Origin: Bacteroidia bacterium
GTDB lineage: Bacteria; Bacteroidota; Bacteroidia; AKYH767-A; OLB10
Assembly: GCA_035340715.1 (NCBI GenBank)
Contig: DAOQTX010000002.1
Coordinates: forward strand, 1,537 to 65,536
DNA length: 64,000 nt
Reading direction: 5' to 3'
The position numbers and the translations under genes were made by a program. Below are positions 27,308 to 49,199 of this stretch, piece by piece (position 1 is the stretch's first letter; each line of letters starts with the position of its first letter). The notes beneath the pieces are model-generated. The model did not search any database, was not told the DNA's origin, and saw nothing but the letters and a program-made list of their open reading frames with translations.

Positions 27308-27318
27308 GATTGCAAATA

Positions 27319-27483
27319 ATGAGTGCCAAAAAACCATTTGCTTTGCGTATCAGTTCTGAAATTATGAAGGGTGTTGAGAAATGGGCTGCAGATGACTTTA
27401 GAAGTGTTAATGGTCAAATTGAGTATCTATTGCATAAAGCTTTGTTGGAAAGCAAAAGAATTAAAGAGAAAAAGAAAGAGTAA
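27319..27483 (+). CDS. Arc-family ribbon-helix-helix DNA-binding protein (54 aa), absent from the ORF track
   Basis: KPFALRISSEIMKGVEKWAADDFRSVNGQIEYLLHKAL matches the Arc/MetJ-like RHH signature (F-x-L-R...RS-x-N-x-x-I-E). Begins 11 nt after the SPFH stop. Confidence 0.6.
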   Translation: MSAKKPFALRISSEIMKGVEKWAADDFRSVNGQIEYLLHKALLESKRIKEKKKE

Positions 27484-27488
27484 GTGAA

Positions 27489-28181
27489 TTAAAGCAAAGA
27501 CGATAACTCTTCTAGCTTATTTATTTTATAGGTGCTGGGAACTTTTGCTTTTTTATTATCTGGATTAAACCAAACAGTGTCCCAACCCGAATTATATGCG
27601 CCATTAATATCGGTTTCTTCATTATCGCCAATCATTAAACAACTGCTGAAAATGGAACTGCATTTTTTTTCAGCGAATTTAAAAATCTGGGGATTCGGTT
27701 TTTGGTATCCTACTTCTTCCGATATTATGATATGATTAAAATGATCGATCAACCCTGAACTTATTAGCTTTATATGTTGAACTTCTTTGAATCCATTGGT
27801 AATGATATGAAGTTTGTATTTTTCTTTTAATTGAGAAATTATCTCAAGAGCACCTGGAATGAGTTTTCCTCTGTAAGGAGATCGCTTAACATATTCATCA
27901 GCAAAAAATTGAGCAAGTTCTTTCGTGTTCTTAAAGTTCAGTTCTTTAAATACTTTTCTGAATCGTGTAATTCGTAACTCTTCTTTCTTAATTCTTCCTT
28001 GATGATACGCTTTCCATAATTCTTCATTGGTATGCTGGTAGATGCTAAAAAAGTGGTCAAATGGAGTAAACTCTTGTAAATGGGTTTCATTATACAATTC
28101 CAATAAGGTTTCTTTAGAATTATGATTAAAGTCCCATAAAGTGTGATCGAGATCAAAAAAAATATGATCGTATTGGTTCAT
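27489..28181 (-). CDS. HAD-superfamily hydrolase, YjjG-like 5'-nucleotidase subfamily
   Basis: DxDxT motif in IFFDLDHTLWDF, followed by ITNG and GDNEETD. Confidence 0.7.
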   Translation of the reverse strand: MNQYDHIFFDLDHTLWDFNHNSKETLLELYNETHLQEFTPFDHFFSIYQHTNEELWKAYHQGRIKKEELRITRFRKVFKELNFKNTKELAQFFADEYVKRSPYRGKLIPGALEIISQLKEKYKLHIITNGFKEVQHIKLISSGLIDHFNHIIISEEVGYQKPNPQIFKFAEKKCSSIFSSCLMIGDNEETDINGAYNSGWDTVWFNPDNKKAKVPSTYKINKLEELSSLL

Positions 28182-28753
28182 TCAAATAGATTCTCTTGTA
28201 AAGATTTCAAAGTAAAAACATCGTATAACTCAAACAACGTTACCATTAGGACCGACCAAAATGTAATACTGATCAACATATAAAGAAATATTTTTCTTCG
28301 CTTTTCTACCAAACTATTTGCTACCACTGTGCCAATGGGAATGGATAATATTACTGGAGTAATGATTGCAATACCGGCAAGGCCATACTTTTGCCAAATT
28401 TTTACCAAACGTCTATTTCGTTTTGTAAAAACTTTTTTCTCTTCAGCTTTTGTTATGTAAGTGTATGTTACTTCAATATCGGAATTAGCATCGGTAATGG
28501 GTTTGGAAAAGGTATCCTTCTTCTTTCTTAGGCCGAAGCGAATGAATGAAAATATTTTCTTCCAAGCCATCAATATGTAAGGCGAGAAAAATGTGAACAC
28601 AAATACGCCCAACATTCCACCACTAACGCAATATAATATGGTTTCAAAAAATCCGAAATCGTACCTTGAATCGTAATACGCAAATGCAGGCCCTGCAACA
28701 AATTTAACACTGCTCAACAGGATTACCAGTAAGATTTTAACTAATTCGTTCAA
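28178..28753 (-). CDS. small multipass membrane protein, hypothetical
   Basis: Four hydrophobic segments. 4-nt overlap with the HAD gene. Confidence 0.45.
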   Translation of the reverse strand: MNELVKILLVILLSSVKFVAGPAFAYYDSRYDFGFFETILYCVSGGMLGVFVFTFFSPYILMAWKKIFSFIRFGLRKKKDTFSKPITDANSDIEVTYTYITKAEEKKVFTKRNRRLVKIWQKYGLAGIAIITPVILSIPIGTVVANSLVEKRRKIFLYMLISITFWSVLMVTLFELYDVFTLKSLQENLFE

Positions 28754-28756
28754 TGC

Positions 28757-29410
28757 TTACACTTTTGTTCCATAAGCTAAATCACCTGCATCTCCCAACC
28801 CGGGAACGATATAGGATTTAACTGTCAGTTCTTCATCAACTGCGGCTGTCCATATATGTGTGCCAAATGGAAGATGAGCTTTTACGTATTCTATTCCTTG
28901 TTTGCTTGAGATGGCAGAAACAAAATGTACTTGCGATGGTTTGCCTTTTTCTAAAAGCGCATTAAAAGCAACTACAGCAGAAGATCCGGTTGCCAACATA
29001 GGATCACTAATAATTACGATTCGATTGTCGAGTGAAGGTGCAGAGAGGTACTCGAATTTTATTTCGAATGAACCATCTTTGTGATGATGTCGATAAGCCG
29101 AAACAAATGCATTGTCCGCACGGTCGAAATAATTTAAAAGACCTTGATGGAGAGGAATGCCCGCTCTTAAAATAGTAGCTAAAACCGGCTGTTGATCAGG
29201 ATAATTTATCTTCGCAATGCCCAGTGGAGTAGTAGTCTCAATTGTTTCATAACTCAATTGCTTACTCAGTTCATATGCAATGACTTCACCAATTCGTTCT
29301 AAATTCCTTCTAAAGCGCATACGGTCGTTTTGAATTTTTACATCTCTTATCTCACCAAGAAAAACATTTAGAATAGAATTGTCTGTGTTGAGTATGTGTA
29401 GTGTTGACAT
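28757..29410 (-). CDS. upp: uracil phosphoribosyltransferase
   Basis: ILRAG, DPMLATGSS and PGLGDAGD motifs. Colinear with E. coli Upp. Confidence 0.85.
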   Translation of the reverse strand: MSTLHILNTDNSILNVFLGEIRDVKIQNDRMRFRRNLERIGEVIAYELSKQLSYETIETTTPLGIAKINYPDQQPVLATILRAGIPLHQGLLNYFDRADNAFVSAYRHHHKDGSFEIKFEYLSAPSLDNRIVIISDPMLATGSSAVVAFNALLEKGKPSQVHFVSAISSKQGIEYVKAHLPFGTHIWTAAVDEELTVKSYIVPGLGDAGDLAYGTKV

Positions 29411-29413
29411 ATA

Positions 29414-30127
29414 TTAGTATAAACCTCCGTTAATATGAATATTTTGACCTGTAATGTAATTTGATTGTTCTTGTAAAAGATACAGTAAACAATTGATAAT
29501 GTTTAACGGATCACCTAATATTTTTTTTGGAATTTTATTGATGATCTCATTTGTTTGCTCTGAATTGAGTTCGCTAATCATACCCGTGTTAAAGTAACCG
29601 GGTGATATTTGATTAACAGTGATATTGGTTTTGGCCGTTTCTAATGCCAGAGATTTGGTTAAACCCCATAAACCTGATTTCGATGCTGCATACGCAGAGG
29701 CCCCAGCTACTCCGGTACTTGCTACTATACTTGAAATATTTATTATTCTACCAAACTGGTTTTGCTTCATTATTGGAATTACATACTTTGAACATAAAAG
29801 TGGAGCTGTTAAATTTACCGCCAAAGTATCGTTCCATCTTTGCAGATCAATCTTCCAACTAATGGCATTGTAGTTCACTCCTGCATTATTTATCAATACA
29901 TCAATTTTACCGTGTTGTTGTATCGCATCATTAATTCCCTTTTGAATTTGATCTTCATCTCTTAAATCAACTTTATGCAAACTAATGCTTTGATCAGTTA
30001 ATAGAGTAGGTGAGGGCTCATTCTGTAAATAGAATAGTGCAAGTGAATAGCCTGCCTTTGCTAATCCTTGAGCTAGAGCTGTTCCCAATCCTCCTGATGA
30101 ACCTGTGATGAGTGCGACCTTTTTCAT
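29414..30127 (-). CDS. SDR-family oxidoreductase (FabG-like)
   Basis: TGSSGGLG cofactor motif, NNAG, and the S...YxxxK catalytic residues (YAASK). Confidence 0.8.
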   Translation of the reverse strand: MKKVALITGSSGGLGTALAQGLAKAGYSLALFYLQNEPSPTLLTDQSISLHKVDLRDEDQIQKGINDAIQQHGKIDVLINNAGVNYNAISWKIDLQRWNDTLAVNLTAPLLCSKYVIPIMKQNQFGRIINISSIVASTGVAGASAYAASKSGLWGLTKSLALETAKTNITVNQISPGYFNTGMISELNSEQTNEIINKIPKKILGDPLNIINCLLYLLQEQSNYITGQNIHINGGLY

Positions 30128-31020
30128 TTTGTTATACCTAATATGCTTTTGATCGATTTGTTTTGCAAGCGTAAATATACAAAGTCATCTGCTCCAAACC
30201 CCTTAAAAAATTGTGCAACACCTTTTACTGAGGATCCCCCAAAATCAAAACAGTCATATTTGTCTTTGTAATATTGTATGGCATCATACATGAGCAGATG
30301 CATTGATCCGCTTTTCTTGCCTTGATCACTGCTGCCTCCTTTTAAATACGTCACACATTTACCTGATATAATAAAACAAGCAGCGGCACAAACATTTCCT
30401 TCCAAGTCCACCACTTCCCAAAATTCAGCTTTTTGTTTTTGTTGGAGTTGTTTCATTAAATTCTCAAGAACATTTAAGTGATCACTCTGCAATTCTTTTA
30501 TTTGATTAAAAGCTGAGCTTTTGAATAAATTCATCACTGATTCTAGTGATCCATTGATCGTTCTATGTGACAAGCGTTTTGATTTCTTTATGTTGCGAAC
30601 ATGGTTTTCAGAAAATGTACTTATCAAATCTATTGATCTATCTTTAAAGGAAATGGCTTGATAATGACGTTCACTGATTTTTGTGTTAATCGGTATTTCA
30701 ATGGGCCTTTGCTCCACTTGGATGTCAAAGGTTCTATACGTTTTAAAAAGAGTAGTATAGAATGGATTGGGATCTATATCTTCTTTGCTGTGGATGGAAA
30801 TATACCTGCTGAAAATAGGTTGGCTTAAGTAACTATATCCAAATTTGCTCTGTTCAGGCACGGGCATCACTGCTTTATAATCTCCATGTATCAGGCCCTT
30901 CCAATTGGTATTTAAAGAGTCTAGGTAAATGCTCTCAGAAAAGATAGATGCATTTTTTGATTCTAAAATACATTGATCCCACCTTGAACGGTTTATATTC
31001 TCATTATGAATCAGATTCAT
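30124..31020 (-). CDS. FemAB-like / GNAT-fold acyltransferase (BioF2-like acetyltransferase domain), putative
   Basis: 298 aa. The C-terminal segment AAACFIISGKCVTYLKGGSSDQGKKSGSMHLLMYDAIQY resembles the FemAB/Acetyltransf_6 families. 4-nt overlaps on both sides. Confidence 0.4.
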   Translation of the reverse strand: MNLIHNENINRSRWDQCILESKNASIFSESIYLDSLNTNWKGLIHGDYKAVMPVPEQSKFGYSYLSQPIFSRYISIHSKEDIDPNPFYTTLFKTYRTFDIQVEQRPIEIPINTKISERHYQAISFKDRSIDLISTFSENHVRNIKKSKRLSHRTINGSLESVMNLFKSSAFNQIKELQSDHLNVLENLMKQLQQKQKAEFWEVVDLEGNVCAAACFIISGKCVTYLKGGSSDQGKKSGSMHLLMYDAIQYYKDKYDCFDFGGSSVKGVAQFFKGFGADDFVYLRLQNKSIKSILGITK

Positions 31021-32009
31021 ACATTACTTTTTAAAAAATACTCATAGTTAACAAACTCATGTTTGTCGCAATTATTTTTGATGAAAGTATGCAATCGATT
31101 AAACGAATACTCACTCATAGCTTTAGGATGTGAGAGGACCACCATACAATCCTTTCCATCTTTTAAGATTTGCTTTTGACTTTTATTTAAAAGTCTTGCG
31201 TTATATCCATCCACACTAATATATTGTCTGGTTCTTTGAGTTAATATTCTCTGTCTAAATCCCTTTTCCATTATGGGCAATCCATCTCCTATGGGTTTGT
31301 GTAAGCGTGGATTCAATCTTCCCAACACATATAATATCCAATAAAAAGTAGGGTTTACCATTCTACTCGAAACTGGAATCTCCAAGAAGGATCCATTGTG
31401 ATCTTCCTCAGCCGGATTGTCTTCAAAACGATATTGACATTTATCGGGTGCCGATCTAAAATCATATTCGTAATGCTCACTGCTTTTATATTCATTCACA
31501 ATCACAGATGAATCTATTCGAATATTAAGATCAATAAGAGCTTGCTTAAAATAGGAGAACGGTTGAATACACCATCCACCGGCTCTGAAAGCTGATCCTA
31601 ACTTGATATTATGTTTTTGAATGGAATGAGCATATTTAAGTATTATTTGCTTCGCTTCTGCTTTATTGAAATCGGATAATTTGTAACGATGCGTGTTAAA
31701 GATCCATTTCGTTTCCTCCAAAACTGCATCTTCCCAATGCGGATGAACATGCAAATACACTGAACTTTCGGATTCATTGATTGAGATTAAATGACTTAAT
31801 AATTTTTGATGCTGTTCTTTTGCATAAATATTGTTTTCTTTCTGCTCTTCAAGTTTACTGATCAATCCTGCATCAAAAAAGAAATTAAATGGAATAGAAA
31901 ACTCCTTGCTTATTTTTAGCAAGCGTTCACCAGGTTGTATGATGCATTTTTCTACGCTCCCGCTTTGTCCAAAGTATAATTCATGATCAAATGTGAGAAG
32001 GATCTTCAT
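31017..32009 (-). CDS. polysaccharide-deacetylase-like (NodB/DUF2334-like) hypothetical protein
   Basis: N-terminal KILLTFDHELYFG is reminiscent of the TFDD motif of the NodB fold. 330 aa. Confidence 0.35.
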   Translation of the reverse strand: MKILLTFDHELYFGQSGSVEKCIIQPGERLLKISKEFSIPFNFFFDAGLISKLEEQKENNIYAKEQHQKLLSHLISINESESSVYLHVHPHWEDAVLEETKWIFNTHRYKLSDFNKAEAKQIILKYAHSIQKHNIKLGSAFRAGGWCIQPFSYFKQALIDLNIRIDSSVIVNEYKSSEHYEYDFRSAPDKCQYRFEDNPAEEDHNGSFLEIPVSSRMVNPTFYWILYVLGRLNPRLHKPIGDGLPIMEKGFRQRILTQRTRQYISVDGYNARLLNKSQKQILKDGKDCMVVLSHPKAMSEYSFNRLHTFIKNNCDKHEFVNYEYFLKSNV

Positions 32010-32938
32010 GCTTGCGAGTCTATTCCTAATGGATGATACATGGTTACTTTATTAGCCAAATAAGCATCGACCATGACTTGATGTAGCTTGTATGCATCAA
32101 GTACAATACATTTTGCTTTTCCAATTTGAATTTCTTTCAAAACGTTTTCTTTTATAAAAATTGGCTTCAATGCATCGCAATCTCTGGTTGAAGAAACTGT
32201 TGGATCATGCACTTTTGTTTTCATGATATGTGCATTACCATTATCATCAATCATTTTAACTTCGTATGTTGTATTAAGATAGACTGGAAGATTGAATTCT
32301 TTTATGTCCTCTAACGTATGCAAATTGGTTAAACTTTGATTCATAGTTACTCCAATGAGTAAAATCTTTCCATTTTGATTACAAAGTTTTCTGAAGGGAC
32401 TATTTTCAGAAAATGGTGTTAATTCTCCAAAATGTGAGTTGGTTAAATGATCCGCCAAGGGACCTCTTGCACAGACGGGATGTGTAGGATGAAAGCTTCT
32501 TTTTACTCCAGGCATTTTTCTGAATATCTCAGTAACCATACCCATTTGCGAAGGTGTATTCAATTGATCAAATGTAAAGTTTCCCTTTTGAATGGTTGTA
32601 GCAGCATCTTCTCGTATAGGGAAGGAGGGCATGGCTAAGGTTCCATTTGTCCCTATGCAATGTAACAAGGCTTCGATTAGAGTGTTTGCACCATTTTCAA
32701 TTTTACCAATTTTTCTCAGCGAGCTATGAACCATAAGCAAATCATCATTTGTGATTCCGGCTTCTATTAAATCTTGAATAAGATCTTCTTTGCTTAAGAC
32801 TGATTCGGTTGAAAGGTAATTTCGGAAAATATTACGTGATTTACGCTTAGCAGATCTCAGAAATGAAAAAACTGATGGGAATGACTTTCTGAATTTTCCA
32901 TGCAGAAGCATAAAGTATTTATTTTCATACAAGCTCAT
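32006..32938 (-). CDS. AAC(3)-family (Antibiotic_NAT) acetyltransferase
   Basis: LLMVHSSLRKIGKIENGANTLIEALLHCIGTNGTLAMPSF matches the aminoglycoside 3-N-acetyltransferase family signature. Confidence 0.65.
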   Translation of the reverse strand: MSLYENKYFMLLHGKFRKSFPSVFSFLRSAKRKSRNIFRNYLSTESVLSKEDLIQDLIEAGITNDDLLMVHSSLRKIGKIENGANTLIEALLHCIGTNGTLAMPSFPIREDAATTIQKGNFTFDQLNTPSQMGMVTEIFRKMPGVKRSFHPTHPVCARGPLADHLTNSHFGELTPFSENSPFRKLCNQNGKILLIGVTMNQSLTNLHTLEDIKEFNLPVYLNTTYEVKMIDDNGNAHIMKTKVHDPTVSSTRDCDALKPIFIKENVLKEIQIGKAKCIVLDAYKLHQVMVDAYLANKVTMYHPLGIDSQA

Positions 32939-34248
32939 TTTGTTGCGTACTCAACCATTTGTTCATAAACGGTACTCCATCCTTTCCAATCTCTTCTTTC
33001 ACTAAGTGATTCATTATGCCATAAACTGATAAAAGTTCCATTTACTTTTTTTACCTGATCAATCATGGGTATGATATGTGATAAAGCTTGATCAGGTTCA
33101 ATTTTCATATAATATTTTAATGTAGCATCCATTACGCCAAAAGGATGTACTCTTAAATTGGTTTCTTTTTCTTGGTCAATGTCGTAAAACAAAAAAGAAG
33201 AGCAAGTTCCTGCTCTGAACCCCACTTCATTAGCATAGCCCATGCTATAATCATCTGTTATATCGTGTTCAATCAATTTACGATAGGTTTCAGGCAAACG
33301 TATTTTTAAGAAATGTTGTCTACTTTGATAAATATCTCTACGTAGGATTTTTGATAGATGATTGATTTCTTTCTTAAGTCGATCGGGTTCTTTGTTTGAT
33401 CCGTATGATGGATGAATGCCTACATCGGCATAGTCGGCAAGTGATTTAATCAGCGATTGAAACTTTCTGTTTTCAATAGGAACGTTCTTATCGTTTTCGC
33501 CATATTTACCTAACAAGATAAAGTACAAGACTTTTAAATTGTACTTTTTCATGATATCCAATTGATAATCATACGTATCATATGGGTCCTGTGTTTTTCC
33601 GCTGATAACACTAAGCCTTTCTTTAATATCGGCCAGATCAAATTTTAGAAGTGATCTCAAAAAAGCACCGCCTGTACGCATAAAACCTTTTTCAAGAAAA
33701 GCATACGCATTGTCGATATCCAAGCTGGAGATGTACTTGTAGTTTCTTTTCTTATAAGGCAGGTTTGGATATTTTTGAAGAATCATTTTCTGAAACTTCA
33801 TAGCATAAAGATCGACCAGAGGCAGATGTAAAAAATTATGTGTATGAGCGAATGAGTTTTGTGCAATGTATCGGTCGTGTTGATCTCTTACGTGCGGAAG
33901 ATATTCTTCGTACCGACTCACCATGAAAAACGTAGCTGCAAATACATCAAAAGGGATATCGTACTTAGGGTGAGTTGCAAAAAAGGCAGGTAAATTGTCC
34001 CAATAGAATATGTTTAAATCCTGATCTTCTATTCCTTTTTTGAACAACAGGTTTTCTGAATAAACGAAAAACTCATTGTCAAGTAATTTATCAGAGTAAT
34101 TTATTTTCGGTCCATCGTAAGACCTGAATTCATGCGCTTTAAGTGTAAATCGAAACTCAAATCCACATAGTTCTTTTAAGAAAAAGTTCAGTGTGTACTG
34201 TAATCGACTTGATTCTTTGTGTGAGTAAACCAATATATAGGCGCTCAT
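32935..34248 (-). CDS. orphan hypothetical protein (437 aa), possibly deacetylase-like
   Basis: No clear motif. The segment IHPSYGS...QSRQHFLKIRLPETY is faintly deacetylase-like. Confidence 0.3.
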   Translation of the reverse strand: MSAYILVYSHKESSRLQYTLNFFLKELCGFEFRFTLKAHEFRSYDGPKINYSDKLLDNEFFVYSENLLFKKGIEDQDLNIFYWDNLPAFFATHPKYDIPFDVFAATFFMVSRYEEYLPHVRDQHDRYIAQNSFAHTHNFLHLPLVDLYAMKFQKMILQKYPNLPYKKRNYKYISSLDIDNAYAFLEKGFMRTGGAFLRSLLKFDLADIKERLSVISGKTQDPYDTYDYQLDIMKKYNLKVLYFILLGKYGENDKNVPIENRKFQSLIKSLADYADVGIHPSYGSNKEPDRLKKEINHLSKILRRDIYQSRQHFLKIRLPETYRKLIEHDITDDYSMGYANEVGFRAGTCSSFLFYDIDQEKETNLRVHPFGVMDATLKYYMKIEPDQALSHIIPMIDQVKKVNGTFISLWHNESLSERRDWKGWSTVYEQMVEYATK

Positions 34249-34266
34249 ATTCTATATGTTAAACTC

Positions 34267-35406
34267 CTATTTTAAAATGATATTACAAATAAGCTCTGCT
34301 GCATTCCCTTCACCATAAAAGGAAGGATAGGTATAATCATTCTTCGAATATAAATGGTTAAAAGATTGAACTATTAATTCCTGATCAGCTGCTGCCAATC
34401 GGTTGTTCCCATTTTCTACCAATTCAATCCATTCTGTCTCGGGTCTGAGCACTACACAAGGTTTCTTAAAGAAGAAAGCTTCTTTTTGAACTCCACCGGA
34501 GTCGGTTAGAACAATACGACTATTGCTTTCTAAGGCGATCATATCTAAAAAACTTACAGGATCAATAATCAATAAGTTGTTTTGTTTCTTTATATCGGAT
34601 AAAAGGCTTTCAGAAAGATTACTACTCATTAATTTCTTTGTACGTGGATGAAGTGGAAGTACAATTTTTAAGGACTGCGTTTTGATGATTTCAAGTAGTG
34701 AGAGAAAAATATTTTCAAAATTCACTTTGTTATCGGTATTATGATCGCGATGCACAGTGCATAATGAAAAATTGTTCGGAGATAGATTGAGATCTTTCAA
34801 TATGGTGGAAGATGATTTTGCCTTTTGTTCAAAGAAGATGCTGTTGTCGTACATAATGTCTCCACTCAAAAATATTCCAGGCTCATCAGCAGAATATGGA
34901 CCTTTTGATTGTAAGGAAAATCCTTCGTGCTCTAAATTTTGCATAGCTGAAGAAGTAGGGCAGAAGAGAAAGGTAGCAAGATGATCGCAAACAATTCGAT
35001 TTACTTCTTCGGGCATTTTCTTATTAAACGATCTCAATCCGGCTTCGATGTGTATGCAAGGGATGTGTAATTTAGAAGCGGCCAATGATCCGGCCAGAGT
35101 ACTATTGGTGTCACCGTAAACCAAAACAAAATCGGGTTTGTTTTTTAAGCACACCTCTTCAATGCCAACCAACATTTCGCTCGTTTGTTTACCATGGGTA
35201 TTTGAACCCACATTCAGATTCATGTCCGGTTTGGGAATTTCCAATTCCTGAAAAAAAACATCGGACATATTATGATCGTAATGTTGACCGGTATGCAGAA
35301 TGGTTTCTTCGATTTGACCTTTGAACGAGTTACGAATGCAACGGCTCATAGCGGATGCTTTAATAATCTGAGGGCGTGCCCCGATGATTGTAAGTACTTT
35401 TATCAC
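34267..35406 (-). CDS. wecB: UDP-N-acetylglucosamine 2-epimerase (WecB/NeuC family)
   Basis: MIKVLTIIGARPQIIKASAM, HTGQHYD and GDTNSTLAG motifs. Confidence 0.85.
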   Translation of the reverse strand: MIKVLTIIGARPQIIKASAMSRCIRNSFKGQIEETILHTGQHYDHNMSDVFFQELEIPKPDMNLNVGSNTHGKQTSEMLVGIEEVCLKNKPDFVLVYGDTNSTLAGSLAASKLHIPCIHIEAGLRSFNKKMPEEVNRIVCDHLATFLFCPTSSAMQNLEHEGFSLQSKGPYSADEPGIFLSGDIMYDNSIFFEQKAKSSSTILKDLNLSPNNFSLCTVHRDHNTDNKVNFENIFLSLLEIIKTQSLKIVLPLHPRTKKLMSSNLSESLLSDIKKQNNLLIIDPVSFLDMIALESNSRIVLTDSGGVQKEAFFFKKPCVVLRPETEWIELVENGNNRLAAADQELIVQSFNHLYSKNDYTYPSFYGEGNAAELICNIILK

Positions 35407-35414
35407 AATTCGAT

Positions 35415-36101
35415 TTATATTAAACCTTCATCGGCAAAACTAAAATAATTTGAGCCTGCAATAATAATATGATCAATCAAGTTTAATTCTAACATTTTAC
35501 CGGCTTCCTTTAATTTTGACGTTATTTTTTTATCCTCATCACTTGGAAAAGGAGATTCGCTTGGATGATTGTGCGCTACGATAATTCCATGTGCCTGCAT
35601 CTCAATAGCCATCTTAAAAATCAATTTAGGATCTACCACCGTTCCTGACATTCCACCTTTACTCAATTTAATTTTCTTAATCAGTTTGTTCGCTCTATTT
35701 AAACAGATCACATGAAATTCTTCGTGATTTAAATCCTCTAAATCCGTTCGAAAAAGTTCAAACGCATCTCTGCTGCTTTTTATTTGCGATTTGGTTCGGG
35801 CTTCTTCTTCACGTCTTCTTTTGCCAATTTCCAATGCAGCAGACAAGGTAATGGCTTTAACCTTGCCTATACCTTTAGTCTTTATTAAATCAGGTATGGA
35901 TTTTCGAGAGAGTTCAGCCCAATTGTACTGATGTTCACTGAGCAACTCTCTTGCAAGAGTGATGGCATTTTTCTTAGTAGTACCTGTTCGGAGTAAAATG
36001 GCTAAGAGTTCAGCATCACTCAGCGAAGAAGCTCCATTTTTCTCGAGCTTTTCACGAGGTTTGTCATCATTATTTAGCTTTCGTATTTGTTGATCTTCCA
36101 T
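35415..36101 (-). CDS. radC: DNA repair protein RadC (JAB/MPN domain)
   Basis: HhH-like N-terminus and JAMM motif HNHPSESPFPSDED. Confidence 0.8.
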   Translation of the reverse strand: MEDQQIRKLNNDDKPREKLEKNGASSLSDAELLAILLRTGTTKKNAITLARELLSEHQYNWAELSRKSIPDLIKTKGIGKVKAITLSAALEIGKRRREEEARTKSQIKSSRDAFELFRTDLEDLNHEEFHVICLNRANKLIKKIKLSKGGMSGTVVDPKLIFKMAIEMQAHGIIVAHNHPSESPFPSDEDKKITSKLKEAGKMLELNLIDHIIIAGSNYFSFADEGLI

Positions 36102-36119: not shown

Positions 36120-36154
36120 AAAAAAATAGCCCTTCCTGTGTTTCAGAAAGGGCT
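36120..36154 (-). terminator. rho-independent terminator after rpsT
   Basis: On the minus strand, AGCCCTT-loop-AAGGGCT followed by ATTTTTTT. Confidence 0.6.
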
Positions 36155-36430: not shown

Positions 36431-36447
36431 TTTCTTTCAATCTTTAG

Positions 36448-36519
36448 TAGCCCGTAGGGGAATCGAACCCCTGTTTCCTCCGTGAAAGGGAGATGTCCTA
36501 ACCCCTAGACGAACGGGCC
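36448..36519 (-). tRNA. tRNA-Glu (anticodon TTC)
   Basis: Folds manually into a cloverleaf. Acceptor GGCCCGT/ACGGGCT, D-loop containing GG, anticodon loop CTTTCAC, T-loop TTCGATT. Confidence 0.85.
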
Positions 36520-36580
36520 TTTGGTTAAAAAAGAGGTGCAAAGGTAGAGGTATTTTTGTTTTCCACAAACAAAAATTAAA

Positions 36581-38847: not shown

Positions 38848-40509
38848 ATGAATACGTCAAACATTAAAACCAGCAAGAACATGAAAGCAAAAGCAATTTT
38901 AATTATCGCTTCCATGTTGGGGATTTACAGTTGTACATCCACTTCATACACCTCATCATCTCGAAACATGGACGATGTTTACTACAGTGAAAATCAATCA
39001 GAGCCTATCTTCATGGGCAACTCATCTTCGTCCGAAGATAATAGTTCAAGTGGAGAAATTACAAGTGAGTATGAATCAATTTCATCATCTCAGTCGAATG
39101 AAGGCAGTGATGATAATCGTTTTTCATATGATGAACCAAGTGAACCGAGTCAGGAATATTCAACTGATCCATCCAATAGTGAAAGATATAGAGATGAAAG
39201 TGGTAATACCTATGTGACCAACAATTACTATGGAGACTATTACGATTATGAGTATAGTTCTCGTTTAAGACGATTCTATCGCCCGTCCTCATATGGATAT
39301 TATCATAGTTATTATACTAACAGTTATTATTATACCTACCATCCTAATCATTGGGGATTGAGTATTTATTTAGGTTATAATTTTTGGTATCCACCAGTTT
39401 CGGTTTCTTTTGGATGGGGTAGTCCGGGATATTATGGCTCAAGTTGGTATGGATATAATCCTTATGGATGGTCAAGTCCAATTTATCCTTCGTATTATTT
39501 CGGCTATGGAAGTCCTTACGGATATTATGGAAGTAGTTACTACAATGGATATTATGCGGGTTATTGGAATGGTTATTACCAAGGATATTATAATTCCGTA
39601 TATGGTCCTTACGGTTACCCACATATCAACCCATACTATTGCAATACTTATGATGGCTCACTTGGATATTATTATGGTCCACGAAGTGGTGGTAGTGGTG
39701 AGAACAACAACCCTGTGCAAGCTTCAGGACCTAGAACGATTCAAAATAGTCTTTACCAGAACATGGTATATAATAATGATGGACCAAAAACTCCTACATT
39801 TGAAAGCGATGTAAAAGGTCCTGGAAAAACTCCGGTTCAAAGTGTTTCTCCTGTAAAGGGATCACCCAATGATGTTTCTCCAAGCATTGGATCCGGTCAT
39901 ACCGATGTTGCCCCGGTTAAAGGAAATAGTAGTGTGTCTCCTGTTAAAGGAAATACCGATGTCGCTCCAGTAAAAGGTAATAGTGAAACAAATCCTGTTA
40001 AAGGAAATAGTCATAGTGAGACAGTTAGCCCTGTTAAAGATCCTAGGACTATTAGTCAGCCAGGGAATAATTCTTCAGAAACAGCTCCAACCAAAAATAA
40101 CCCTATTAAAACGGAGCCTGCTCCAAAGCCAAGGCCTTATCAGTCTCCTTCATATGAGCAGCCAAAGAATAATCAACCTGGTGTGGATTCTCCTCGTGAC
40201 AATAATAATGTTACACCAAGAAGTCCAAACGTTGCTCCTTCAAAATCACCTCGACCAAGAAGTAGTTACGATTCACCTAGAAACTACGGAAATTCTACAA
40301 AAGGAAATAGTTGGAACTCGAATGATGTGAAGAGTAGTCAACCCAAGAGTAATTCACCTCGACCTTCAATTCAATCAGGTGGTTCGGGAATTAAAAGTAC
40401 TCCAAGAAATAATAACTCCAGTTCTGGTGTTAGTTCTAGTCCTCGCAACTCAAACTCGGGGAGTAATAGTCCAAGTAGTGGCGGATCGAAAAGGACCCCT
40501 AGAAATTAA
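38848..40509 (+). CDS. secreted low-complexity protein with an acidic segment, a Tyr/Gly/Ser-rich segment and tandem PVKGN repeats
   Basis: Possible lipoprotein signal if it starts at the Met at 38881 (MKAKAILIIASMLGIYSC). Extreme compositional bias. Several long alternative-frame ORFs in the same region are treated as artefacts. Confidence 0.55.
   Translation: MNTSNIKTSKNMKAKAILIIASMLGIYSCTSTSYTSSSRNMDDVYYSENQSEPIFMGNSSSSEDNSSSGEITSEYESISSSQSNEGSDDNRFSYDEPSEPSQEYSTDPSNSERYRDESGNTYVTNNYYGDYYDYEYSSRLRRFYRPSSYGYYHSYYTNSYYYTYHPNHWGLSIYLGYNFWYPPVSVSFGWGSPGYYGSSWYGYNPYGWSSPIYPSYYFGYGSPYGYYGSSYYNGYYAGYWNGYYQGYYNSVYGPYGYPHINPYYCNTYDGSLGYYYGPRSGGSGENNNPVQASGPRTIQNSLYQNMVYNNDGPKTPTFESDVKGPGKTPVQSVSPVKGSPNDVSPSIGSGHTDVAPVKGNSSVSPVKGNTDVAPVKGNSETNPVKGNSHSETVSPVKDPRTISQPGNNSSETAPTKNNPIKTEPAPKPRPYQSPSYEQPKNNQPGVDSPRDNNNVTPRSPNVAPSKSPRPRSSYDSPRNYGNSTKGNSWNSNDVKSSQPKSNSPRPSIQSGGSGIKSTPRNNNSSSGVSSSPRNSNSGSNSPSSGGSKRTPRN
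39846..40044 (+). repeat. 27-nt tandem repeat inside the CDS, encoding x-x-[SA]-PVKG-[NSD]
   Basis: About six copies. The core CCTGTTAAAGGAAATA recurs with small variation. Confidence 0.7.
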
Positions 40510-40527
40510 CAATTAATTCTGATTATT

Positions 40528-42015
40528 ATGAGACATTATATATCAGGAATGCTGTTTACAACAGCATTCCTTTTCATTCCTTTTTTTATTTCTGCACAAA
40601 ATCAAATAGATGCATTACGATATAGCCGAATGCAATTTGGATCAACAGCACGTAGTCTTGCCACAGGAGGAGCATTTTCTGCACTAGGAGCTGATTTGTC
40701 TGTTTTGTCAACCAACCCTGGTGGTTTAGGTTTGTATAGAAACGGAGATATAAATTTTACTCCTGCATTTTATATTAGAAGCGTTGATAGTAAATATCTT
40801 GATAAGAACTTAAGTGATAGTAAGGTGCAATTTGGATTTTACAATCTTGGAATCGTTGCTGTATCACAAAATGGATCATCTTCTCCTTGGAAAAGACACG
40901 TTATTTCTTTTGGATACAATAAGTTAGCTAGTTTTAATACCAATTCATATTTTGAAGGATTCAACCAACAGAATTCTTTACTAACCAATTTCGTTGAACA
41001 ATCGCAAGGACTGAGTGCTTCTACATTGAGCAACAACAGCGCTTTTGATCTAAATCTTGCTTTTCAAACTTGTGCAATAGATACTTCAAGTGATGGAAAT
41101 TATTATTCGGGATTTCCAAATGCACATGTAATGCAAAGCCGATTATTTGAAAGCAGAGGTTCGATAGGAGAGTGGTCGTTTGGTTATGGTGGTACGCTTG
41201 AAGAAAAATTATATCTCGGAGCATCACTTAATTTTCCTACCATTAGATATGATGAAGTTTCTTTATATGAGGAATCCGATATACAGCATGATTCTTCTTT
41301 AGTTTGTGGAGCCGATTTGGATGCCATTACGTATAGAAAAGATCTTTTGACCAAAGGGAATGGAATAAATTTAAAGTTTGGAATGATTGTACGACCTTCC
41401 GATTATGTGCGATTGGGTATTGCCATTCATACTCCAACTTATTTTGTAATGAAAGATTATTATTCATCGAGATTTACCAGCAACTTTACAGATGGCAGTA
41501 GCTATAGCGAAGATTCTCCTGCTGGTTTTTATCAGTACAACTTAACCACGCCATTTAGAATGCTAGCAAGTGTAGCATTTATGTTTGGTCAAGCCGGATT
41601 TCTGACGGGTGAATATGAGTATGTTGACTATGCCAATGCCAAATTAAAAGCTCCTGATTATTCATTTAGTCAAGAGAATTCAGCTATTAAAGGACAGTAT
41701 ACCTCATCACATAATGTACGATTGGGAGCTGAGGCTAAGCTCGACAACATCAGTTTGCGATTTGGCGCTTCTTATGCACAATCACCTTATGAAGGAGACT
41801 CACAATCTATTTCTGAATCGAATAGTAGAAATACTATTGGCTTTAGTGGTGGCTTTGGTTACAAATATGAAAATTGGTATTTGGATGTAGGATATGCATT
41901 CAACTCGTCTAAAGAGTATTATCAGCCATATACAGTCAATAATGGTCTTAGTCCGGTTAGTTTAGAGGAAATAAAGGAACATCGCTTACTGATCACTACA
42001 GGATGGCGATTCTAG
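40528..42015 (+). CDS. outer-membrane beta-barrel protein, FadL/PorV-like family
   Basis: Signal peptide. N-terminal ALRYSRMQFGSTARSLATGGAFSALGADLSVLSTNPGGL signature and terminal Phe. Confidence 0.55.
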   Translation: MRHYISGMLFTTAFLFIPFFISAQNQIDALRYSRMQFGSTARSLATGGAFSALGADLSVLSTNPGGLGLYRNGDINFTPAFYIRSVDSKYLDKNLSDSKVQFGFYNLGIVAVSQNGSSSPWKRHVISFGYNKLASFNTNSYFEGFNQQNSLLTNFVEQSQGLSASTLSNNSAFDLNLAFQTCAIDTSSDGNYYSGFPNAHVMQSRLFESRGSIGEWSFGYGGTLEEKLYLGASLNFPTIRYDEVSLYEESDIQHDSSLVCGADLDAITYRKDLLTKGNGINLKFGMIVRPSDYVRLGIAIHTPTYFVMKDYYSSRFTSNFTDGSSYSEDSPAGFYQYNLTTPFRMLASVAFMFGQAGFLTGEYEYVDYANAKLKAPDYSFSQENSAIKGQYTSSHNVRLGAEAKLDNISLRFGASYAQSPYEGDSQSISESNSRNTIGFSGGFGYKYENWYLDVGYAFNSSKEYYQPYTVNNGLSPVSLEEIKEHRLLITTGWRF

Positions 42016-43028: not shown

Positions 43029-44816
43029 TTAAAAACAATAGGAATTCGCTTCAAGCATGTGTCTGGCGATTCTGCGTCTTGCTTCTTTCGAGTTATAATT
43101 CTGAACTTTTGTGAAGCGCTTTAGTCCCATTTGCAACATTCTTAATTCATCTCCTTCGGCCATTGCTCCAATGGCTGCTTTACCGGCTAAGTTTATTCTA
43201 TCGGAGGCGGATTGAACATATACATTGAGCATGTCATGATATACCGATAACTTTTTTTCATCAATACTTCCGCTGAGTTTATTGACTCTCAAATAAATTG
43301 ATTCTGCAACGAAAATGTCGATCAGCATATCGGTTATGTTCATTATTATTTCTTGCTCTGTTACAAGCTTCATCATATACTTCTGTGCTGCAAAGCCTGC
43401 AACCATCAGAGCCGCTTTCTTAAAAGCGTTTATATTATTTTCCAACAGCAACATTGGATCATCCGATCCATTACCAAACTCTGGAATAGACATAAGTTCT
43501 TTTTGAACATTTGAAGCCGCTGTCATCAAATCCAATTCTCCTTTCATGGCTCTTTTAACCAACATATCCACTGTCAATAGTCGATTGATCTCATTGGTGC
43601 CTTCAAAAATTCTATTGATTCTGGAGTCACGATAAGACCTATCCATTGGATAATCGGTTGAGTATCCATAGCCACCGTATATTTGTACACCTTCGTCCAC
43701 TACGAAATCCAGAACTTCACTTCCAAATACTTTTATCATTGCACATTCCGCAGCATATTCTTCAGCGGCCGACAAAAGTGATTTTTCGTAACTCATTCCC
43801 TCAGACTGTTTAAGTTTTTCATCCTCATCAATCATGTGGGCTAAACGATAAAGTGTAGTTTCCAGCGCAAAGGTTCTTATTGCTTGTTCGGCTAATTTGT
43901 GCTTTATAGCTCCAAATTTTCCAAGCGACATATTAAACTGTTCTCTTGTATTTGCATATTCAACCGAAAGTCCGGCACTTCTTTTGCATCCACCTAAAGC
44001 AGCCGCAGCTAATTTTAAGCGACCAATATTTAATATATTAAATGCAATCAGGTGCCCCTTACCAATTTCGCCAAGAACGTTTTCAACCGGTACTTTACAA
44101 TCGTTAAAAAATACCTGACGGGTAGAAGAACCTTTAATTCCCATTTTATGTTCTTCATTGCCTAATGAAATACCGGGATATTCTTTCTCAATAATAAATC
44201 CTGTAAATTTCTCTCCATCAATTTTAGCGAATACAATAAAAACATCTGCAAAACCTGCATTGGTAATCCACATTTTCTGTCCATTAATGATATAATGTTT
44301 CTTATCAGCGCTGAGCACAGCTTTAGTTTTTGCTGCTAAAGCATCTGATCCAGATCCAGGTTCGGTTAAACAATAAGAAGCTTTTAATTCTCCGCTGGAT
44401 AGTTTAGGCAGATACTTCTTTTTTTGATCTTCATTTCCGAAATATAAAATTGGTAATGTACCAATACCAGTATGAGCAGCCATAGCCACTGCAAATGAAT
44501 GTCCAGCTCCCAGAACTTCTGTAATTAATGTTCCGGTAATAAAATCTTTTCCTAAGCCTTCATAACTTTCAGGAATACTAAGACTAAGCAAGCCCAACTG
44601 TCCGGCTTTATCAATCAAAGAAGCCATTAAACCTTCTTCCATATTGTCTATTCGATCGAGTATTGGAAAGACTTCTGTATTAAGAAATTCCTTACCCATA
44701 TCAGCCATCATTTTGTGTTCTTCTGAAAATTGTTCGGGAATAAAAGTGCTCATTTCAGAAGTGGGTGTGACTAGAAATGCACCACCACGCATTGTTTTTG
44801 TTTCTACCTTATTCAT
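43029..44816 (-). CDS. long-form acyl-CoA dehydrogenase
   Basis: 595 aa with the ACAD N-terminal, middle and C-terminal domains. Confidence 0.8.
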   Translation of the reverse strand: MNKVETKTMRGGAFLVTPTSEMSTFIPEQFSEEHKMMADMGKEFLNTEVFPILDRIDNMEEGLMASLIDKAGQLGLLSLSIPESYEGLGKDFITGTLITEVLGAGHSFAVAMAAHTGIGTLPILYFGNEDQKKKYLPKLSSGELKASYCLTEPGSGSDALAAKTKAVLSADKKHYIINGQKMWITNAGFADVFIVFAKIDGEKFTGFIIEKEYPGISLGNEEHKMGIKGSSTRQVFFNDCKVPVENVLGEIGKGHLIAFNILNIGRLKLAAAALGGCKRSAGLSVEYANTREQFNMSLGKFGAIKHKLAEQAIRTFALETTLYRLAHMIDEDEKLKQSEGMSYEKSLLSAAEEYAAECAMIKVFGSEVLDFVVDEGVQIYGGYGYSTDYPMDRSYRDSRINRIFEGTNEINRLLTVDMLVKRAMKGELDLMTAASNVQKELMSIPEFGNGSDDPMLLLENNINAFKKAALMVAGFAAQKYMMKLVTEQEIIMNITDMLIDIFVAESIYLRVNKLSGSIDEKKLSVYHDMLNVYVQSASDRINLAGKAAIGAMAEGDELRMLQMGLKRFTKVQNYNSKEARRRIARHMLEANSYCF

Positions 44817-44880
44817 AATACATTAAATGATTATTATAATACGAAAAAAAAGGCAATTAGTTTTAATATTCGGATATTAA

Positions 44881-46059
44881 TCAGAACATTTCGAAAACCC
44901 CAGCTGCACCTTGTCCGGTACCTACACACATGGTTACCATGCCGTATTTTAAATTTCTTCTTGTAAGCTCGTTGAAAAGCTGAACACTAAGTTTGGCTCC
45001 CGAGCATCCTAGCGGATGGCCTAGTGCAATTGCACCGCCATTAACATTTACCATGTCAGGGTTTAAACCTGTTTCTCTAATAACAGCTATGGACTGCGAT
45101 GCGAAAGCCTCATTTAATTCTACCAACTGAATATCACTGAGTTTAAGATTCGCTTTTTTCAATGCTTTAGGAATTGCTTCAACCGGGCCAATGCCCATAA
45201 TACGTGGACTAACTCCTGCTACCCCATAAGACAACATTTTTGCCAAGGGTTTATTTTTTAATTTTTTGGCAAAGGTATCTGAAACCAATAGCACAAATGC
45301 AGCTCCATCACTTGTTTGAGAAGAATTTCCTGCCGTAATACTACCTTGAGCGGAAAATACCGGCTTTAATGTATTTAGTTTTTCAACGCTGGTATCGGCT
45401 CTAGGGCCTTCATCAATACTAAATTGTATTTCTTTCTCACTGCGTTTATTTTTTTCGTTTAGAAATACTTCCTTGAAAGTATATGGAACAATTTGCGAAG
45501 TAAAATATCCTTGATCAATTGCTTTTATTGCTTTTTGATGAGAATGGTAAGAAAATTCATCTTGGTCGCTGCGACTAACCTTATATTCATTCGCTACGGC
45601 CTCTGCAGTAAGTCCCATTCCCCAATAGTAATCGGGGTTTTCTAATGCGACTTTCGGATTGGGTGTAATTCTCCAACCCCCAAATGGAATAGGGGACATA
45701 CATTCAACTCCACCTGCAATAATACAATCTGCTTGACCTGAAACAATTTTTGAATGCGCAATAGCTATGGTTTCAAGGCCTGATGCACAATAGCGGTTTA
45801 CGGTCATGCCGGGTACTTTTTCGGTATTCAAGCCCATCAACGATATCATTCTGCCAATATTGAGACCTTGCTCTGCCTCAGGAGTAGCATTACCAACGAT
45901 GACATCATCTATATCATTGGGATCTAATTCGGGTACACTTTGAAGCAGATGTTTAATAACAGACACCGCTAAATCATCAGGTCGAACATTCTTCAAAGTT
46001 CCTCGTGGGGCTTTACCCACTGCACTTCTAAATCCGGCTATGATATAGGCTTCCTTCAA
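44881..46059 (-). CDS. fadA: acetyl-CoA C-acyltransferase (thiolase)
   Basis: Active-site Cys in NRYCASGL, and the C-terminal GHPLGCSGA and CVGTGQGAA motifs. Confidence 0.85.
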
Positions 46060-46072
46060 TAGTAAAAATCAA

Positions 46073-46750: not shown

Positions 46751-46793
46751 CTGACAGGTGTTTTTTATTTATGGGTTAAAAATAATACAAAAA

Positions 46794-49196: not shown

Positions 49197-49199
49197 AAA

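Follow-up and report, generated by a model that had tools for sequence, protein, structure and literature searches.

We found nine co-directional open reading frames (ORFs) on the minus strand that exactly fill positions 27489-35406 of the window (the whole 64,000-nt stretch of Bacteroidia DNA analysed). The ORF listing and a reading of the junctions revealed five ATGA overlaps (437-aa protein/AAC(3)-like protein, AAC(3)-like protein/330-aa protein, 330-aa protein/298-aa protein, 298-aa protein/SDR, and membrane protein/HAD phosphatase), and the other junctions within the array are gaps of 18, 3, and 3 nt. The original prediction had counted four such overlaps and ten genes; nine lie in the span, and a tenth is reached only if the neighbouring RadC-family gene (35415..36101, minus strand, 8 nt upstream of the epimerase gene) is included. 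The tight packing is borne out, and a chance origin of the array can be dismissed, since dozens of independent genomes share its gene order. Inside it, we found no recognisable terminator or promoter. A terminator-like hairpin (36128..36154, minus strand; 11-bp stem and T-run) follows rpsT, 17 nt ahead of the RadC start, and marks either the upstream limit of the transcription unit or a site of read-through. RadC (Pfam RadC and UPF0758_N; NCBIfam NF000642, 229.6 bits, cut-off 180) adjoins in 33 of 41 VimE-containing loci. We regard it as a syntenic neighbour that is probably co-transcribed with the array and do not assign it to the pathway.

Pfam and NCBIfam searches confirmed the families named from the sequence alone, with the NodB-like assignment of the 330-aa protein supported by fold instead. 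The 437-aa protein (32935-34248), previously considered an orphan, is placed by NCBIfam in the VimE deacetylase family, which links the cassette to a known pathway that the original prediction had not considered. It comprises DUF7033 (Pfam, 113 bits) and a deacetylase region, and matches NF053580 (deacetylase_VimE) over model positions 88-428 of 431 (E 2.8e-54, 184 bits). As the equivalog cut-off is 440 bits, the same substrate as VimE cannot be assumed. D177, D179, H279, H312, and H411 are conserved across 53 orthologues, and the protein is a putative N-deacetylase for a UDP-linked acetamido sugar, by its family; NCBIfam describes VimE as acting on a UDP-sugar. The 330-aa protein (H330; 31017-32009) adopts a CE4/NodB fold, in which the Asp and His motifs are conserved, and is a putative second N-deacetylase. 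No Pfam or NCBIfam model matched it above cut-off, and no signal peptide was evident when its N-terminus was inspected by eye.

The hub of the cassette is the gene for a 298-aa tandem-GNAT protein of the FemA/FemX fold (30124-31020), which we refer to as VimA-like. Apart from the uncharacterised protein 2hqy, the top structural neighbours of its model are aminoacyl-tRNA-dependent transferases, among them Sbb17, whose structure is a complex with streptothrisamine. Nine of 17 orthologues match TIGR03019 (best E 6.8e-8) with scores far under the 260-bit cut-off, and two of the 17 weakly match the FemX model. The protein is a putative aminoacyl-tRNA-dependent N-aminoacyl transferase.

Three further genes are variably present among approximately 170 related loci. 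The first gene of the array encodes a WecB-type non-hydrolysing UDP-GlcNAc 2-epimerase (34267-35406, GTG start; Pfam Epimerase_2, 345 bits; TIGR00236, 312.6 bits, cut-off 210), an accessory gene found in only some of these loci. The AAC(3)/Antibiotic_NAT-family protein (32006-32938; Pfam Antibiotic_NAT, 183.5 bits) has PDB relatives AAC(3)-IVa, YokD, and FrbF, keeps the family motifs across 55 orthologues, and is a putative N-acetyltransferase for a second amine. It scores 122 bits against NCBIfam AAC_3 (cut-off 270) and falls under every NCBIfam AAC(3) cut-off, and we rejected a resistance-type identity. The third is a classical FabG-like SDR (29414-30127; Pfam adh_short, 180 bits), whose best NCBIfam matches are under their equivalog cut-offs; in one relative it is naturally fused to the VimA-like protein (protein P0364, locus L084).

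The last three genes encode uracil phosphoribosyltransferase (upp; 28757-29410, 3 nt downstream of the SDR gene; NF001097, 205 bits, cut-off 114), a 191-aa membrane protein of the PF06695 ("small multi-drug export") type (28178-28753), whose N-terminus, from a TTG start, lines up with its orthologues, and a HAD phosphatase of the YjjG/YfnB type (27489-28181; noncanonical pyrimidine nucleotidase family, TIGR02254, 225 bits, cut-off 159.9). The previously noted adjacency of upp and the HAD gene to the tailoring genes is kept in 35 of 41 VimE-containing loci. The rpsT/RadC adjacency is conserved equally well (33/41), so synteny alone can explain the upp linkage. In a VimA-centred metagenome sample, upp lies directly downstream of the VimA-like gene in only 13 of 40 loci, and upp and HAD are missing beside the cassette in many loci of that sample, in three others (L001, L002, and L014), and in 18 Crocinitomicaceae/Fluviicola-type loci. 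Opposite-strand genes split the trio from the cassette in L054. One locus (L085) retains VimA-upp-membrane-HAD and lacks all other cassette genes, which is unexpected if the trio are mere passengers. These three genes are probably co-transcribed with the cassette, and we prefer to see them as a neighbouring pyrimidine salvage/house-cleaning module, kept by synteny, rather than as parts of the pathway; upp itself is a conserved neighbour whose pathway membership is unproven.

Hundreds of environmental Bacteroidia share the gene row, which is distributed over at least 547 species and has a core-genome context. Across the approximately 170 related loci, the part that stays constant is the FemX-fold transferase gene preceded by a deacetylase gene, either the VimE-like one or that for the 330-aa CE4 protein, and many loci have this pair without the AAC(3)-like gene. 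Directly upstream of the VimA-like gene, 16 of the 40 VimA-centred loci have a VimE-like gene and eight the 330-aa CE4 gene; two loci (L087 and L088) have a compact VimE-VimA pair, and another (L119) carries a Polysacc_deac_1 gene directly downstream of the VimA-like gene. As originally noted, the array has no glycosyltransferase, Wzx/Wzy, or exporter; it also has no Wbp genes or aminotransferase. The sole glycan gene within approximately 27 kb on either side is a lone GT9 (12599-13579) about 14 kb away, and the whole window has no exporter. In the 18 Crocinitomicaceae-type loci, 330aa-VimA-(SDR) is followed directly by a Polysacc_synt_2 (CapD/PglF/WbpM-type) dehydratase gene, and GT4 glycosyltransferases and Wzx-type flippases lie downstream of more distant VimA-like genes. 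The arrangement that the original prediction had named as speaking against it, with upp and HAD unlinked and the tailoring genes in ordinary glycan loci, is found in some relatives but not in this window.

We consider it fairly probable that the genes at 30124-35406, together with the SDR gene, make up a Vim-type cassette for remodelling the N-acyl group of an amino sugar in the cytoplasm, with the sugar linked to a nucleotide or possibly to a polyprenol. Most likely, it swaps N-acetyl for N-aminoacyl on a building block of a surface glycan. In the sequence of steps, substrates, donor, and destination that we infer, a CE4-type deacetylase (VimE-like, the 330-aa CE4, or both) would strip the N-acetyl group, and the VimA-like enzyme would load an amino acid from aminoacyl-tRNA onto the freed amine. 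A second amine, either one more on the ring or the alpha-amine of the newly attached aminoacyl group, would then be acetylated by the AAC(3)-like enzyme. Optional steps by the epimerase and the SDR may alter sugar stereochemistry or the side chain, and glycosyltransferases encoded elsewhere would build the product into a glycan of the cell surface (LPS, an O-glycan, or the anchor that holds type IX secretion cargo). The NF053580 match that spans the model, the CE4 fold of the 330-aa protein, the structural neighbours of the VimA-like protein, the VimA::SDR fusion, the VimE-VimA pairs, the relatives in glycan loci, and a PMT_2 GT-C gene inserted within the cassette in L052 support this reading, and the sugar-nucleotide tailoring logic seen from the sequence (an epimerase, two deacetylase-like proteins, two N-acyl/aminoacyl transferases, and an oxidoreductase) fits it. 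Against it count that a classical FabG-type SDR is an unusual kind of nucleotide-sugar reductase, that a deacetylase beside an acetyltransferase appears futile unless they target different amines, that the VimE-like protein scores well under the equivalog cut-off, that the array has no Wbp genes, aminotransferase, or glycosyltransferase, and that L085 keeps the upp trio beside VimA alone.

Alternatively, the sugar could be remodelled on polyprenyl-phosphate at the inner membrane face, flipped by the PF06695 protein, and transferred by a GT-C encoded elsewhere to lipid A, core, or protein. The model for such an Arn-like route is ArnD, which deformylates Und-P-Ara4FN. The membrane protein still adjoins the VimA-like gene in loci that have lost upp (L012, L052, and L059), one of which (L052) carries a PMT_2 (ArnT/PMT-type GT-C) gene inserted within the cassette, and an EamA transporter lies downstream of the cassette in L001. 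Yet the PMT_2 insertion occurs in one locus only, the membrane protein is missing near the Crocinitomicaceae-type loci except L054 and L083, generic CE4 deacetylases outscore ArnD, the array has no ArnC-like GT2 or polyprenyl-phosphate transferase, and the VimE substrate is a UDP-sugar according to NCBIfam; we consider this route unlikely. A substrate outside surface glycans, for example a soluble amino-sugar metabolite processed much as in mycothiol synthesis (deacetylation, attachment of an amino acid, and its N-acetylation) or a peptidoglycan precursor, seems quite improbable to us. A deacetylase, an aminoacyl transferase, and an N-acetyltransferase parallel the order of MshB, MshC, and MshD, FemX, whose model two orthologues weakly match, acts on UDP-MurNAc-pentapeptide, and the scarcity of glycosyltransferases in the window would fit. 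However, MshB (LmbE type) and MshC (an ATP-dependent ligase) differ in fold class from the cassette enzymes, relatives are found among GT4, Wzx, and PglF-type dehydratase genes in glycan loci, and many loci with the deacetylase-transferase pair lack the AAC(3)-like gene.

The original prediction had favoured a single pathway to a modified UDP-amino-sugar or a uridine-derived, nucleoside-type metabolite; with all nine genes in it, upp would supply UMP and the HAD protein would be a dedicated nucleotidase. The 3-nt SDR-upp gap and the uninterrupted array agree with this, as does the position of upp directly after VimA/SDR whether the full cassette, VimE-VimA only (L087 and L088), or nothing (L085) lies upstream, and FemX-fold tRNA-dependent transferases are known from uridyl-peptide antibiotic pathways. 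We nevertheless judge it very improbable. Both upp and HAD exceed the equivalog cut-offs of ordinary housekeeping enzymes, and we found no pointer to a uridine-derived or peptidyl-nucleoside product. The equal rpsT/RadC linkage, the low share of VimA-centred loci with upp directly downstream, the loci without upp, and the separated trio in L054 also argue against it. The window has no radical-SAM, NRPS, ATP-grasp, or resistance genes, and the broad core-genome distribution is unlike that of a secondary-metabolite cluster.

Among the known systems closest to the proposed Vim-type cassette is the Wbp/Vim pathway found in Porphyromonas gingivalis and Tannerella forsythia, which makes the linking sugar of type IX secretion cargo (PMC7468200, PMC13086638). 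VimE and VimA of P. gingivalis are proposed to deacetylate a UDP-diacetamido uronic acid at N-2 and then add Ser or Gly (PMC7468200). There, too, a DUF7033 VimE-family protein adjoins a FemAB-type GNAT protein about 300 aa long in a Bacteroidota host, and the weak TIGR03019 signature is the one that Veith et al. report for VimA. The P. gingivalis vimA and vimE genes adjoin just one glycosyltransferase gene, vimF (PMC13086638), a precedent for a cassette encoded, like ours, away from most of its glycosyltransferases. In contrast, the VimE-like protein is far under the equivalog cut-off, and the cassette has additional genes for an epimerase, an SDR, an AAC(3)-like acetyltransferase, and a second CE4 protein that fits no family model. 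It has no VimF-type glycosyltransferase gene beside it, no Wbp genes were seen in the window, and the hosts are environmental Bacteroidia rather than oral pathogens.

Similar logic is proposed for the Caulobacter crescentus holdfast, where the cytoplasmic polysaccharide deacetylase HfsH unmasks a precursor amine and HfsK, a Fem-like GNAT N-acyltransferase, re-acylates it, which is thought to aid anchoring; unlike the cassette, these proteins are from a different phylum, HfsK is c-di-GMP-regulated, and the genes are not described as adjacent (PMC5362036). PEP-CTERM/exosortase loci likewise pair a TIGR03019 FemAB-family protein with a polysaccharide deacetylase (PMC7468200), but the cassette has no exosortase or PEP-CTERM context and its TIGR03019 scores are low. 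Sequence identity of the VimA-like protein to Sbb17-type streptothricin-related transferases (PDB: 9wqx) and FemX/FemA is only 10-15%; those enzymes serve secondary-metabolite or peptidoglycan pathways, whereas the cassette has no antibiotic cluster context. The AAC(3)-like protein shares Pfam Antibiotic_NAT and conserved motifs with aminoglycoside 3-N-acetyltransferases, FrbF, and YokD; unlike the AAC(3) enzymes, it is encoded in a core-genome biosynthetic operon, and a resistance function is not to be expected.

The minus-strand array at 27489-35406 comprises nine ORFs with no intervening room, which encode, from 5' to 3', an epimerase, a 437-aa protein (32935-34248), an AAC(3)-like acetyltransferase, a 330-aa protein (31017-32009), a 298-aa FemX-fold transferase (30124-31020), an SDR (29414-30127), Upp, a 191-aa membrane protein (28178-28753), and a HAD phosphatase (27489-28181). 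The original prediction spoke of ten genes while listing nine; RadC (35415-36101), 8 nt upstream, is the only possible tenth member. Reading each junction yielded five ATGA start/stop overlaps rather than the four first counted (437-aa/AAC(3)-like, AAC(3)-like/330-aa, 330-aa/298-aa, 298-aa/SDR, and membrane protein/HAD); the epimerase and 437-aa genes are 18 nt apart, and upp is separated by 3 nt from both the SDR gene and the membrane protein gene. Alignment with the N-termini of orthologues supports TTG as the start codon of the membrane protein gene.

Matches to the Bacteroidetes-type promoter consensus (TTTG...TAnnTTTG) occur only 5' of the Band7 gene and 5' of tRNA-Glu/rpsT. The latter (36539-36573, minus strand) lies just upstream of a tRNA-Glu(UUC) gene (36447-36519, minus strand), the sole Rfam match, which is located between a 227-aa ORF and rpsT. 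A strong rpsT hairpin followed by a T-run (36154-36128, minus strand) ends 17 nt before the RadC ATG and is probably the point at which a joint tRNA-Glu/rpsT unit terminates. The promoter and terminator scans found neither a Bacteroidetes consensus promoter nor a convincing terminator inside the array, which fits, and does not prove, a single transcript. The sigma-70 promoter scan performed at chance level (45 found versus 40.5 expected), as did the terminator scan with the exception of the rpsT hairpin.

The epimerase is of the WecB type (TIGR00236, 312.6 bits versus a cut-off of 210.15); it scores only 52 bits against the NeuC model, and these two models do not distinguish a WbpI-type specificity. 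The 437-aa protein, previously taken for an orphan, carries Pfam DUF7033 (113 bits versus 27) and aligns along the NCBIfam VimE model NF053580 (positions 88-428 of 431, E 2.8e-54). By its sequence it is thus a member of the VimE-family deacetylases, with an N-terminal DUF7033 and a deacetylase region, but it misses the VimE equivalog level, which implies UDP-2,3-diacetamido-2,3-dideoxy-glucuronate as substrate (184 bits versus the curated 440). Our full-text literature search retrieved no paper on DUF7033. The 330-aa protein has a NodB fold and the Asp/His metal-binding or catalytic motifs of CE4 enzymes, and it matches no curated Pfam or NCBIfam model; a profile comparison between its family and the VimE-like family was insignificant, so there is no detectable paralogy. 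The SDR is a classical FabG-like enzyme, Upp is genuine (NF001097, 205 bits versus 114), the HAD protein is a YjjG/YfnB-type phosphatase (TIGR02254, 225 bits versus 159.9), and the small membrane protein is of the PF06695 type. PDB sequence searches with the 298-aa, 330-aa, and 437-aa proteins returned nothing significant; their folds are taken from prediction, and fold matches indicate enzyme class, not substrate. The AAC(3)-like protein belongs to the Antibiotic_NAT family and misses every NCBIfam cut-off for AAC(3) resistance enzymes (AAC_3, 122 versus 270 bits; AAC_3_IV, 100 versus 420; AAC_3_II, 96 versus 480); the locus is not one for aminoglycoside resistance.

At least 547 loci encode the 330-aa family in a scan of one genome per species. 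We compared the window proteins with mechanically called stop-to-stop ORFs of 83 of these loci (each designated by an L number), 62 of which have enough flanking DNA; every carrier is a MAG (as is the Bacteroidia source of the window) or a metagenome contig, taxon labels are unreliable, and the loci are phylogenetically non-independent, so the counts are descriptive. Genes for VimE-like and AAC(3)-like proteins both lie 5' of the pair formed by the 330-aa gene and the FemX-fold (VimA-like) gene in 41 of the 62 loci. Among these 41, the membrane protein gene is found downstream in 37, upp in 35, and the HAD gene in 34, and RadC is located upstream in 33. The epimerase and SDR genes are each variably present and are largely mutual alternatives, both occurring in the window and in L017. 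The order of the block is constant while its outer flanks vary: upstream are proS-x-rpsT-RadC or unrelated genes such as hemE and lutA, and downstream are psd/yidC, ftsX/rpsF-rpsR-rplI, or, in the window, the Band7 gene. Single loci carry insertions between the VimE-like gene and a divergent AAC(3)-like gene, namely a PMT_2 (ArnT/PMT-type GT-C) membrane glycosyltransferase in L052 (7623-9173) and an FkbH-like HAD-domain protein in L012 (7481-9172).

A shorter form occurs in 18 Crocinitomicaceae/Fluviicola-type loci (L063, L080, L036, L046, and 14 others), whose cassette content is only the 330-aa gene, the VimA-like gene, and, in some, the SDR gene. These lead directly into a Polysacc_synt_2 dehydratase, a 4HBT thioesterase, and a MORN-repeat protein (approximately 12.5-14.5 kb), and VimE, AAC(3), upp, and HAD genes are absent from all 18. 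The Polysacc_synt_2 gene encodes a CapD/PglF/WbpM-type 4,6-dehydratase (411 bits); a PglF-type gene is also present in L017, approximately 6 kb beyond the HAD gene and not directly after it.

The VimA-like family is large, with 3942 clusters in an exhaustive HMMER search (2152 at E <= 1e-10); a word-index protein search with the 298-aa query returned just two homologues. A sample centred on this gene, assembled from look-ups and a metagenome scan with a 10-sequence alignment, is free of bias towards the 330-aa gene and includes 40 loci whose flanks extend 2.5 kb or more in both directions. The gene immediately upstream is VimE-like in 16 of the 40 and the 330-aa CE4 gene in eight; immediately downstream is upp in 13, an SDR gene in two, and the membrane protein gene in two. 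Compact arrangements comprise rpsT-VimE-VimA-upp (L088) and VimE-VimA-upp (L087). Other genes found 3' of the VimA-like gene encode Wzx-type flippases (L107 and L152), methyltransferases (L116 and L118), another Polysacc_deac_1 protein (L119), and, only in more distant relatives, Pfam-confirmed GT4 glycosyltransferases (L107 and L111). In L084, the VimA-like protein and a FabG-like SDR are naturally fused into a single 556-aa polypeptide (P0364, 1303-2973), with AAC(3)-like and 330-aa genes upstream and upp, membrane protein, and HAD genes downstream.

What recurs is a FemX-fold transferase gene preceded by that of a CE4-type deacetylase, a pairing that matches the proposed logic of VimE and VimA. 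In Porphyromonas gingivalis and Tannerella forsythia, VimE is proposed to deacetylate the Wbp product at N-2, after which VimA would add serine or glycine, and the resulting free amine is the proposed attachment point for type IX secretion system (T9SS) cargo by the PorU sortase (PMC7468200; PMC13086638). The same pairing of deacetylase and transferase has been proposed for HfsH and HfsK of the Caulobacter holdfast (PMC5362036). In its proposed mode of action, the cassette resembles the Vim half of the Wbp/Vim pathway, and it includes a VimE-family deacetylase, but we do not assign it to that pathway because its VimE-like protein falls below the equivalog threshold and no VimF-type glycosyltransferase is adjacent. 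Neither WbpA, WbpB, WbpE, and WbpD nor T9SS genes occur in the 64-kb window. Por_Secre_tail proteins are encoded near the cassette in L003, L085, and L086, which indicates no more than that the hosts are Bacteroidota with a T9SS. The cassette does not correspond to an Arn-type system for lipid-linked amino-sugar modification, as it lacks the combination of ArnC-like GT2, ArnD deformylase, ArnE/F flippase, and ArnT GT-C. The cassette, which is conserved in hundreds of environmental Bacteroidia, is best described as a Vim-type pair to which a second CE4 family and an AAC(3)-like acetyltransferase have been added, with the epimerase and the SDR as optional steps.

The linkage to upp and the YjjG-like gene had been interpreted as a direct fusion of uracil salvage to the tailoring enzymes. 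The adjacency is indeed conserved, yet it is weak evidence of shared function because RadC and rpsT, for which a role in a sugar pathway would not be expected, are adjacent about as often (33 versus 35 of 41 loci). Further points against shared function are that upp directly follows the VimA-like gene in only about a third of the VimA-centred sample, that the cassettes of L001, L002, and L014 end without upp and are followed by ArsC and EamA, that in L054 opposite-strand genes separate the cassette from an intact upp-membrane-HAD trio at a distance of 3.4 kb, and that Upp and the HAD protein score above the equivalog cut-offs of ordinary housekeeping families. In favour of it, upp follows the transferase gene regardless of what lies upstream, including in L085 (10001-13039), where VimA-like, upp, membrane protein, and HAD genes stand without any other cassette gene between a 1491-aa protein lacking a Pfam match and RsgA, Dtd, and MazG. 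Likewise, the membrane protein gene adjoins the VimA-like gene in L012, L052, and L059 despite the loss of upp, and a homologue search with this protein matched close relatives only. That the three are plain passengers is the more likely reading, although L085, L087, and L088 weaken it. Functional integration of Upp and the HAD protein with the cassette is improbable, and that of the membrane protein somewhat less so. A nucleoside-antibiotic cluster, tentatively suggested earlier from a loose likeness to tunicamycin or peptidyl-nucleoside tailoring, is not supported: radical SAM TunB-type enzymes, NRPS, ATP-grasp ligases, and a resistance gene are all missing from the Pfam-scanned window ORFs, and the distribution is not sporadic, the cassette occurring in a core-genome setting in 547 species or more.

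We propose that the genes at 30124-35406 exchange an N-acetyl for an N-aminoacyl group on a cytoplasmic amino-sugar precursor, a reading suggested by the VimE/VimA-like unit, with substrates, order of steps, and final glycan all inferred. Judging from gene content, either CE4 enzyme can partner the transferase, since VimE-VimA occurs alone in L087 and L088 and 330aa-VimA alone in Crocinitomicaceae. The two deacetylases and two transferases of the window suggest that two amines would be edited in this form, and the AAC(3)-like enzyme may transfer its acetyl group to the other ring amine or, as a cap, to the newly added aminoacyl group. FrbF, a member of the Antibiotic_NAT family, acetylates a CMP-linked amine, which makes a nucleotide-linked substrate plausible for the AAC(3)-like enzyme. 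The fusion protein of L084 indicates that the SDR works with the transferase, and the family is assigned to surface-glycan synthesis by its links, in relatives, to PglF-type dehydratases, GT4 and GT-C glycosyltransferases, and Wzx flippases.

A tentative and rather unlikely extension is that the cassette provides a second, widespread route to an amino-acid-bearing linking sugar for PorU-attached T9SS cargo in environmental Bacteroidia. In the short form of Fluviicola and other Crocinitomicaceae, the 330-aa CE4 enzyme, the FemX-fold transferase, the SDR, and the PglF-type dehydratase would yield an N-aminoacyl-6-deoxyhexosamine. Cargo of Prevotella intermedia, which lacks VimA and VimE, bears an N-alanyl-deoxyhexose sugar made by an unknown pathway (PMC11969387), and this sugar is of the same class as the proposed product. 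In the long form of the window, editing of a second amine would fall to the AAC(3)-like and VimE-like enzymes, and the PF06695 membrane protein, perhaps with Upp and YjjG, would be a genuine part of the system. Veith and colleagues consider that several distinct linking-sugar pathways probably exist across Bacteroidota (PMC11969387). For the tethering of T9SS cargo and surface proteins beyond oral pathogens, the cassette offers a defined set of candidate genes, conserved across hundreds of environmental species and testable in cultivable Fluviicola-type strains.

The cassette also brings in a CE4 family whose window member matches no curated model, as well as a relative of the AAC(3) resistance enzymes with a biosynthetic role; that this resistance-family acetyltransferase is most likely a housekeeping glycan enzyme bears on the resistome annotation of metagenomes.

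According to Pfam and NCBIfam scans, glycosyltransferases are absent within the array and directly beside it. The sole glycosyltransferase-type or glycan gene in the 64-kb window is a lone GT9 (heptosyltransferase-family) gene (12599-13579, minus strand), which adjoins a dapD-like gene approximately 14 kb from the array. Otherwise the window is made up of housekeeping genes (ligA, dapA, gap, miaA, cca, def, aroK, proS, several peptidases, and a beta-oxidation block). This block (43029-50972, minus strand) encodes an acyl-CoA dehydrogenase, a thiolase, a MORN-repeat protein, a FadB-like 3-hydroxyacyl-CoA dehydrogenase/enoyl-CoA hydratase, and an AMP-binding acyl-CoA ligase. Two large ORFs of 553 and 495 aa without Pfam matches (38848-42015, plus strand) are divergent from proS and syntenic with it in many relatives, and among their orthologues in L001 and L003 is a protein whose match to Toluene_X (FadL-type outer-membrane proteins) ranges from weak to clear. 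Next to the array, a 54-aa ORF, MSAKKPFALRISSEIMKGVEKWAADDFRSVNGQIEYLLHKALLESKRIKEKKKE (27314-27478, plus strand), starts 7 nt past the Band7 gene and converges on the HAD gene, ending 10 nt from its stop codon; judged by eye, it resembles Arc/ribbon-helix-helix DNA-binding proteins. Also amid housekeeping genes, the minus-strand gene at 9917-10525 encodes a 202-aa protein that contains a PRiA4_ORF3 (plasmid pRiA4b ORF-3-like) domain.
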